NCBI RefSeq assembly: GCF_003334305.1
Contig: NZ_QOWS01000010.1
Origin: Escherichia coli
Lineage (GTDB): Bacteria > Pseudomonadota > Gammaproteobacteria > Enterobacterales > Enterobacteriaceae
Reading direction: 5' to 3' (one strand)
DNA: 64,000 nt
The first letter of the stretch is position 1; every line of letters begins with the position of its first letter. Made by a program: the position numbers and the translations under genes. A model generated the notes under the pieces. That model had not been told where the DNA came from. It saw only the letters and a program-made list of their open reading frames with translations, and ran no database searches. Below, piece after piece: positions 19,734 to 20,645 of the stretch.

Positions 19734-20645
19734 ATGAAAATTACCGTATTGGGATGCGGTGCCTTAGGGCAATTATGGCTTACAGCACTTTGTAAACAGG
19801 GTCACGAAGTTCAGGGCTGGCTGCGCGTACCGCAACCTTATTGTAGTGTGAATCTGGTTGAGACTGATGGTTCGATATTTAACGAATCGCTGACCGCCAA
19901 CGATCCCGATTTTCTTGCCACCAGCGATCTGCTCCTGGTGACGCTGAAAGCATGGCAGGTTTACGATGCCGTCAAAAGCCTCGCGTCCACACTGCCTGTA
20001 ACCACGCCAATACTGTTAATTCACAACGGCATGGGCACCATCGAAGAGTTGCAAAACATTCAGCAGCCATTACTGATGGGCACCACCACCCATGCCGCCC
20101 GCCGCGACGGCAATGTCATTATTCATGTGGCAAACGGAATCACGCATATTGGTCCGGCACGGCAACAGGATGGCGATTACAGTTATCTGGCGGATATTTT
20201 GCAAACCGTGTTGCCTGACGTTGCCTGGCATAACAATATTCGCGCCGAGCTGTGGCGCAAGCTGGCCGTCAACTGTGTGATTAATCCACTGACCGCCATC
20301 TGGAATTGCCCGAATGGTGAATTACGTCATCATCCGCAAGAAATTATGCAGATATGCGAAGAAGTCGCGGCAGTGATCGAGCGCGAAGGGCATCATACTT
20401 CAGCAGAAGATTTGCGTGATTACGTGATGCAGGTGATTGATGCCACAGCGGAAAATATCTCGTCGATGTTGCAGGATATCCGCGCGCTGCGCCACACCGA
20501 AATCGACTATATCAATGGTTTTCTCTTACGCCGCGCCCGCGCGCATGGGATTGCCGTACCGGAAAACACCCGCCTGTTTGAAATGGTAAAAAGAAAGGAG
20601 AGTGAATATGAGCGCATCGGCACTGGTTTGCCTCGCCCCTGGTAG
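19734..20645 (+). CDS. panE: 2-dehydropantoate 2-reductase
   Basis: 303-aa [34 protein letters not shown]... (Rossmann GxGxxG). Confidence 0.97.

Follow-up and report, generated by a model that had tools for sequence, protein, structure and literature searches.

Does yajL of Escherichia coli really begin inside the 3′ end of panE, and if so, how did the two genes come to share these bases, and how is yajL translated from them? The window analysed here, which is the whole stretch of 64,000 nt in which the two genes lie, is E. coli chromosome, and its part from 19600 to 21300 is present in 5425 of 5426 complete E. coli genomes at 95-100% identity. The genes around the overlap are arranged in the order yajR (+), yajQ (-), panE (+), yajL (+), and thiI (-). 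According to the ORF list, the PDB match, and RefSeq, the vitamin-B5 gene panE (19734..20645, + strand) starts with ATG, encodes a 2-dehydropantoate 2-reductase of 303 aa, and ends in TGG TAG at 20640-20645, with the stop TAG at 20643-20645. The ORF list and the PDB match likewise place yajL, encoding a DJ-1 family deglycase/glyoxalase of 196 aa (MSASALV...), at 20608..21198 (+), with its ATG at 20608-20610. The dual-coding overlap of 38 nt (20608..20645, +) comprises PanE residues 292-303 with the stop codon and YajL residues 1-13, and panE codon position 2 is yajL codon position 1. The 38-nt overlap in different frames reported in the first-pass annotation was thus confirmed by the ORF coordinates; the RefSeq/PGAP limits are identical, and the RefSeq annotation of a collinear genome agrees with the window coordinates base for base.

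Both partners are genuine same-strand coding genes sharing bases in different frames. PanE residues 1-303 are near-identical to PDB 1yjq/2ofp (E = 1e-207 to 1yjq), and this full-length match to the characterised E. coli PanE places the protein among the ketopantoate reductases (ApbA/PanE; PF02558 and PF08546, the Pfam domains listed for close PanE homologues). YajL residues 1-196 are near-identical to PDB 2ab0, whose chain starts with MSASALV (E = 1e-126 to 2ab0/5sy4); the match is full length, the N-terminal strand and Glu15 align with DJ-1, and the protein belongs to the YajL subgroup of the DJ-1/PfpI family (PF01965). The strain carries Tyr at PanE codon 77 (19962-19964), where the K-12 structures and a 42-sequence consensus have Ser, and Gln at YajL codon 140 (21025-21027), where Leu is found in PDB chains 2ab0 and 5sy4.

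Repeats lie on both sides of the gene pair. At 19644-19691, in the divergent yajQ/panE intergenic region, two perfectly matching 18-nt arms of an inverted repeat (TATCCCTTAATTGTGCAT / ATGCACAATTAAGGGATA) are separated by 12 nt; the end of the repeat is 43 nt upstream of the panE ATG, and it may act as an operator or form a hairpin. The genes yajL and thiI converge, with stops at 21198 and 21252, and between these stops lies a perfect 11-nt hairpin (CGTCGCATCTG / CAGATGCGACG) at 21215-21238, which resembles a REP-type element or a terminator shared by both genes and for which no Rfam match was obtained. In the best-matching genome, NZ_CP019256.1 (E. coli 13TMH22; 100% identity), the query matched in two pieces and an IS3-family element, IS1203, is annotated under the match, indicating an insertion in or beside the panE-yajL region of strain 13TMH22. 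A clade of Salmonella Dublin with IS1 in panE has been described (PMC12403712).

Whether the overlap has the length given by the annotation depends on the start used by yajL. A TAA at 20587..20589 (+), read directly from the sequence, closes the yajL frame upstream, leaving only the GTG at 20602, where the ORF list opens the frame, and the ATG at 20608 as candidate starts on that side. In the loci of 80 Enterobacteriaceae species taken from GTDB representative genomes, the ATG was invariant (80/80). It is preceded, with a 7-nt spacer, by the Shine-Dalgarno (SD) sequence AAGGAG at 20595..20600 (+), which is made of the PanE codons Lys288 (AAG) and Glu289 (GAG), and 74 species have AAGGAG as the hexamer at -13 to -8 of yajL, the other 6 having AAGGAA. 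PanE Lys288 is encoded by AAG in 77 of 77 species, whereas the nearby Lys286 is mostly AAA, a signature of selection for the yajL SD. Furthermore, DJ-1 structures align from YajL residue 2 and homologues from residue 1-2, PDB 2ab0 represents YajL with its native N-terminus, YajL residues 2-20 are nearly invariant among the 80 species, and residues 2-15 lie within the conserved DJ-1 core. By INRI-seq, Hör et al. (2022; PMC9825163) detected the annotated yajL start in five of five replicates, with values of 67-74 for ribosome-protected fragments; the transcript used was synthetic, started 30 nt upstream of the AUG, and was hence free of panE translation. The in vivo Ribo-RET column in the table of that study is 0 for yajL and panE alike. 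The supplements of the TRAINSPOTTER and Salmonella riboproteogenomics papers contained nothing on yajL that bears on its N-terminus or start in vivo, and a full-text literature search for yajL together with retapamulin returned no match.

The first-pass annotation had also allowed for an even earlier in-frame GTG. Such a codon exists at 20602..20604 (+); no other start codon lies between it and the TAA at 20587, its use would give a protein of 198 aa (MNMSASA...) and a 44-nt overlap, and a start-type codon occupies this position in 75 of the 80 species (GTG in 58 and ATG in 17). However, AAGGAG ends 1 nt before this GTG, compared to 7 nt before the ATG, and the position holds a non-start codon (ACA, GTA, ATT, or ATA) in the other 5 species, as does the codon at -6 of yajL in Sodalis and Pantoea (CAC and GAT). 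The GTG can be read as a by-product of the PanE Ser/Asn290-Glu291 codons (aGT Gag / aAT Gaa), Table S3 of the INRI-seq study gives no non-annotated start for yajL (PMC9825163), and the alignment of DJ-1 homologues from YajL residue 1-2 argues against a longer N-terminus. The GTG is thus judged unused, and initiation from it is very improbable.

The opposite departure, in which yajL is initiated past the panE stop, so that its annotated N-terminus would never be synthesised and the genes would not truly overlap, draws its sole support from the general rarity of long overlaps. The next in-frame ATG, GTG, or TTG in yajL is codon 51, so that no downstream start can give a non-overlapping arrangement without deleting the conserved DJ-1 core, and the near-invariance of residues 2-20, aligned with the N-terminus of DJ-1 structures, together with the invariant ATG, its conserved SD, and use of the annotated start in vitro, speaks against such a start. 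This reading is effectively refuted, its probability being close to nil. The ATG inside panE, as placed by the first-pass annotation, is thus retained as the yajL start on the strength of its invariance, the conserved SD, initiation in vitro, and the want of a usable downstream start; the panE-yajL overlap is real, and confidence in this choice of start codon is good.

The two genes overlap because PanE extends 12 residues past the end of its fold, in the form of a tail. The chain of PDB 1ks9 consists of PanE residues 1-291, that is, exactly up to the overlap, and other ketopantoate reductase structures align only to residues 280-290. In a search covering 1.84 billion cluster representatives, PanE homologues at 40-49% identity aligned to residues 290-293, ending 1-4 residues past the conserved Tyr292. 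A literature search on which PanE residues are ordered in crystal structures gave nothing usable, and the 1ks9 chain length and an AF2 model were used instead. The mean pLDDT of the model is 93.9, with 60 for residues 291-300 and below 50 for residues 298-303, so that disorder is predicted for the tail. In a further set of 119 PanE proteins from Enterobacterales, the full-length ones have 301-307 aa and end mostly in ...G-x-W or ...W-x. The termination of PanE homologues at about residues 290-293 and the match of YajL to DJ-1 from residue 1-2 suggest that the overlap arose by a 3′ extension of panE and not by a 5′ extension of yajL.

The length of the overlap was compared among relatives. In Enterobacteriaceae, 67 of the 80 species have a 38-nt overlap with the stop TAG, and the other 13 have 41 nt; in the latter, yajL Gly12 is GGG, GGC, or GGA, and panE is one codon longer, reading to TGA. 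This back-up TGA, which lies directly 3′ of the TAG in the panE frame (20646..20648, +, in the window), is the working panE stop in those species. The overlap is 38 nt in Yersinia enterocolitica and Pectobacterium polaris, 41 nt in Sodalis sp., and 47 nt in Pantoea sp., whose YajL is three residues longer ahead of the beta-1 strand. It is only 8 nt in Photobacterium leiognathi (L085) and contig L084, and 14 nt in Thaumasiovibrio (L088) and contig L089; these short-overlap loci keep the panE-yajL order, with thiI downstream in three of four. All lengths seen (8, 14, 38, 41, and 47) are 2 modulo 3, and the shortest overlap possible in this phase with an ATG start, following Huber et al. (2023; PMC10666635) and direct reasoning, is 8 nt.

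The Vibrionaceae junction (Photobacterium and Thaumasiovibrio) resembles that of E. coli in gene pair, order, and phase, in the embedding of the yajL ATG in the codon after the helix end of PanE ("...(K/M/R)E..Y"), and in the encoding of the SD by the PanE Glu codon region. It differs in the short overlap of 8 or 14 nt and in the 3-7 extra N-terminal residues of YajL, owing to which PanE stops ahead of the codons for YajL beta-strand 1. The long overlap most likely developed in an Enterobacterales ancestor out of a minimal one of 8-14 nt in the same phase, a short form still found in Vibrionaceae. The early panE stop would then have been lost, and panE would have been read on to the first stop within the conserved YajL Gly-Ser-Glu codons (GGT AGT GAA), which in the panE frame offer TAG or, failing that, TGA; the overlapping stretch would have been constrained in both frames since then. 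The short-to-long direction, drawn from a handful of outgroup loci of which three are metagenomic contigs, is the simplest history, and it is inferred from sequence comparison.

Three further loci appear to depart from the usual arrangement. The panE match of Trabulsiella odontotermitis strain 01 is interrupted at residue 204 and a stop occurs approximately 100 nt before yajL, which suggests a frameshifted panE; the junction itself is intact and of the 41-nt type. One relative (L086, 2386-2976; Logan SRR21833256) shows the order yajR-yajQ-panE-thiI, with a PanE of 294 aa followed by approximately 590 nt with no called gene, and yajL may have been lost or have decayed there between panE and thiI. 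A Logan contig of 1563 bp (P0002) contains a predicted 413-aa PanE-YajL fusion with the junction ...GLPRP|GSEETEAV, implying loss of 1 nt in the CCCC run at the overlap end that shifts panE into the yajL frame; as the fusion occurs in a single contig, an assembly or sequencing error is likely.

Is the tail of PanE selected, or does it only mirror the N-terminus of YajL? In this phase, the first base of each PanE codon is a yajL wobble base. Synonymous codon entropy was compared over 77 species against a background of 200 conserved codons of at least 4-fold degeneracy from panE 6-289 and yajL 15-190. The background mean was 1.47 bits, with a value below 0.2 in 1 of 200 codons, whereas the yajL codons in the overlap had a mean of 0.51, with 4 of 8 below 0.2 (Mann-Whitney p = 5e-5). 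The four frozen codons are Ser2 AGC, Leu6 CTG, Leu9 CTC, and Pro11 CCT. Leu9 is CTC in 78 of 80 species and Pro11 is CCT in 78 of 78, although CTC and CCT are non-preferred codons in E. coli; the former fixes PanE Arg301 and the latter PanE Trp303. The T that gives Trp303 is kept in Yersinia, Pectobacterium, Pantoea, and Sodalis, and also where YajL has His (CAT) or Thr (ACT) as its residue 11. The frozen wobble positions suggest selection in both frames, and part of the PanE tail, above all its terminal Trp, looks selected, though the tail is predicted to be disordered.

A competing explanation holds that the tail is neutral read-through, its conservation being the shadow of the YajL N-terminus and the frozen wobble bases reflecting 5′ codon usage or codon-pair effects in yajL. 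The amino acids of YajL fix two of the three bases of each tail codon, the tail lies outside the PanE fold with pLDDT below 50, positions 295-297, 299, and 300 vary freely with yajL wobble changes, and a recoded strain with a residue added to the PanE tail was viable (Mukai et al., 2015; PMC4434889). However, only 1 in 200 background codons is as invariant as the non-preferred CTC of Leu9 and CCT of Pro11, the T of Trp303 persists over four families and through changes of the YajL residue, and the same Pro codon varies outside Enterobacterales, being CCT, CCC, and CCC in three outgroups that have no long overlap. Neutral read-through is thus a substantial possibility, if short of an even chance. 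The stronger proposal, that the tail (consensus Y-E/D-R-I/V-G-x-G-L/V/M-P/S-G/R-x-W) is a selected peptide with an essential terminal Trp, overprinted on yajL in the Enterobacterales ancestor, is put forward tentatively and may well be wrong. Constraint at the RNA level instead of selection on the PanE peptide could also account for the frozen bases, although 187 of 200 shuffled sequences fold better than the junction (z = +1.24) and no Rfam match was found in the window from 19000 to 22000 at E <= 1.

How yajL is translated was considered on the same basis. A published statement on the operon status of panE and yajL is available (PMC12403712), and a simple, crude sigma-70 scan of 19500-21350 found no internal yajL promoter in panE. 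The two genes form a co-transcribed two-gene operon in which the first 13 yajL codons, shifted by one base, also encode the 12-residue tail of PanE. Ribosomes translating panE cross the yajL SD and AUG and reach their stop 35 nt beyond the AUG, and yajL is most likely translated from the AUG at 20608 through the strong SD AAGGAG, with its 7-nt spacer, encoded by PanE Lys288-Glu289. The position of the panE stop makes de novo initiation at this SD by free 30S subunits the most probable mode and re-initiation by panE ribosomes unlikely; at most, the passage of panE ribosomes would affect how accessible that site is. Independent initiation of yajL is probable in view of its strong SD, the open structure of the junction, and the activity of the start region on its own in vitro, the mode in vivo being inferred.

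Translational coupling by termination-reinitiation, through which YajL would be made in proportion to PanE, is a rival reading of what the overlap serves. The two genes share operon and strand, ribosomes on panE must cross the yajL SD and AUG, both of which lie inside panE, and the -8 of the short-overlap relatives is within the range considered competent (Huber et al., 2023; PMC10666635). However, the -38 of panE-yajL is far outside the window of about -8 to +6/+10 nt for termination-reinitiation (PMC10666635), and reporter studies, as summarised in a review, saw no coupling at -25 nt. Furthermore, as indirect evidence, the yajL start works in vitro with no panE translation (PMC9825163); the junction offers no inhibitory structure for panE ribosomes to melt, and the entry for this pair in the table of Huber et al. 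(2023), "CMPLX not", does not record PanE and YajL as complex subunits. Compared to coupled pairs of the ATGA/TGATG (-4/-1) type, panE-yajL is alike in that co-transcribed neighbours have the downstream start inside or touching the upstream ORF; it differs in that the stop follows the start by 35 nt, the SD is strong and independent, and initiation in vitro proceeds without upstream translation. Coupling is therefore unlikely at this locus. The combined account, comprising a two-gene operon, a PanE tail read off-frame, yajL translated from the ATG at 20608 by de novo initiation, a history from short to long overlap, and dual constraint, is one in which we place considerable confidence.

Finally, the overlap had been called unusually long for co-directional genes. 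This holds insofar as the shared stretch is below 30 bp in more than 80% of overlapping pairs, according to a review citing Johnson & Chisholm (2004), but long overlaps of length 2 modulo 3 are a recognised class and this pair had already been tabulated at -38. Huber et al. (2023; PMC10666635) recognise the class with lengths of 8, 11, 14 ... nt, report that overlaps of approximately 10-60 nt are some fourfold rarer than those of -4, -1, and -8 and enriched in this phase, and, in tabulating the unidirectional gene pairs of E. coli K-12, enter panE-yajL as "-38, CMPLX not". Earlier, Mukai et al. (2015; PMC4434889) had shown the panE-yajL junction in their Figure 1c as an example of a TAG stop inside an overlapping ORF. 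Seven overlaps between genes of the same strand occur in the first 50 kb of the window; they measure 1, 1, 4, 11, 17, 23, and 38 nt, panE-yajL being the longest. Among the + strand genes of the window, approximately 60% of 12-codon windows in this phase contain no stop, and a length of 38 nt is thus unremarkable once no early stop is present. The overlap belongs to the upper end of a distribution that has been well described, and it is no anomaly.

By type, panE-yajL is a long phase-1 co-directional overlap arising from 3′ extension: two real genes share a stretch of at least 8 nt, 2 modulo 3 in length, through an extension of the upstream gene. Three pairs of the same phase class lie in the window, are annotated in like manner, and are shorter, namely cyoB-cyoC (13317-13327, 11 nt); the DUF1778-GNAT toxin-antitoxin pair (15642-15658, 17 nt), which encodes partners in a complex; and thiL-pgpA on the minus strand (27638-27660, 23 nt). 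The cyo pair also encodes complex partners, whereas PanE and YajL have no known interaction as judged from their entry in Huber et al. (2023; PMC10666635). In the unidirectional phase-1 overlaps of the literature (Fukuda, 2003; Fonseca, Harris & Posada, 2013; Huber et al., 2023), as in panE-yajL, the genes share a strand, the length is 2 modulo 3, the upstream gene reads to the first off-frame stop in the downstream gene, and an 8-nt form is found in relatives. Nothing essential sets panE-yajL apart from them; it is longer than most, is order-wide, and bears signs of two-frame selection. The overlap is thus genuine, already catalogued, evolutionarily old, and of an ordinary kind, and the present study makes modest additions to it, namely the order-wide conservation, the relatives with 8 or 14 nt, and the frozen wobble bases.

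The panE-yajL overlap opens no new question, and its value is that of a small, clean case in which an 8-nt overlap would have grown through the loss of a stop codon and then been locked by selection in two frames. Should the PanE tail prove to be a selected peptide, it might serve ketopantoate reductase in docking, stability, or regulation, and the 38-nt stretch would be a small, order-wide, truly dual-coding segment. For work on E. coli itself, the overlap constrains genome recoding and mutagenesis: any "silent" edit of yajL codons 1-13 changes PanE, and alteration of the panE TAG changes YajL Ser13, a link that Mukai et al. (2015; PMC4434889) had to work around.
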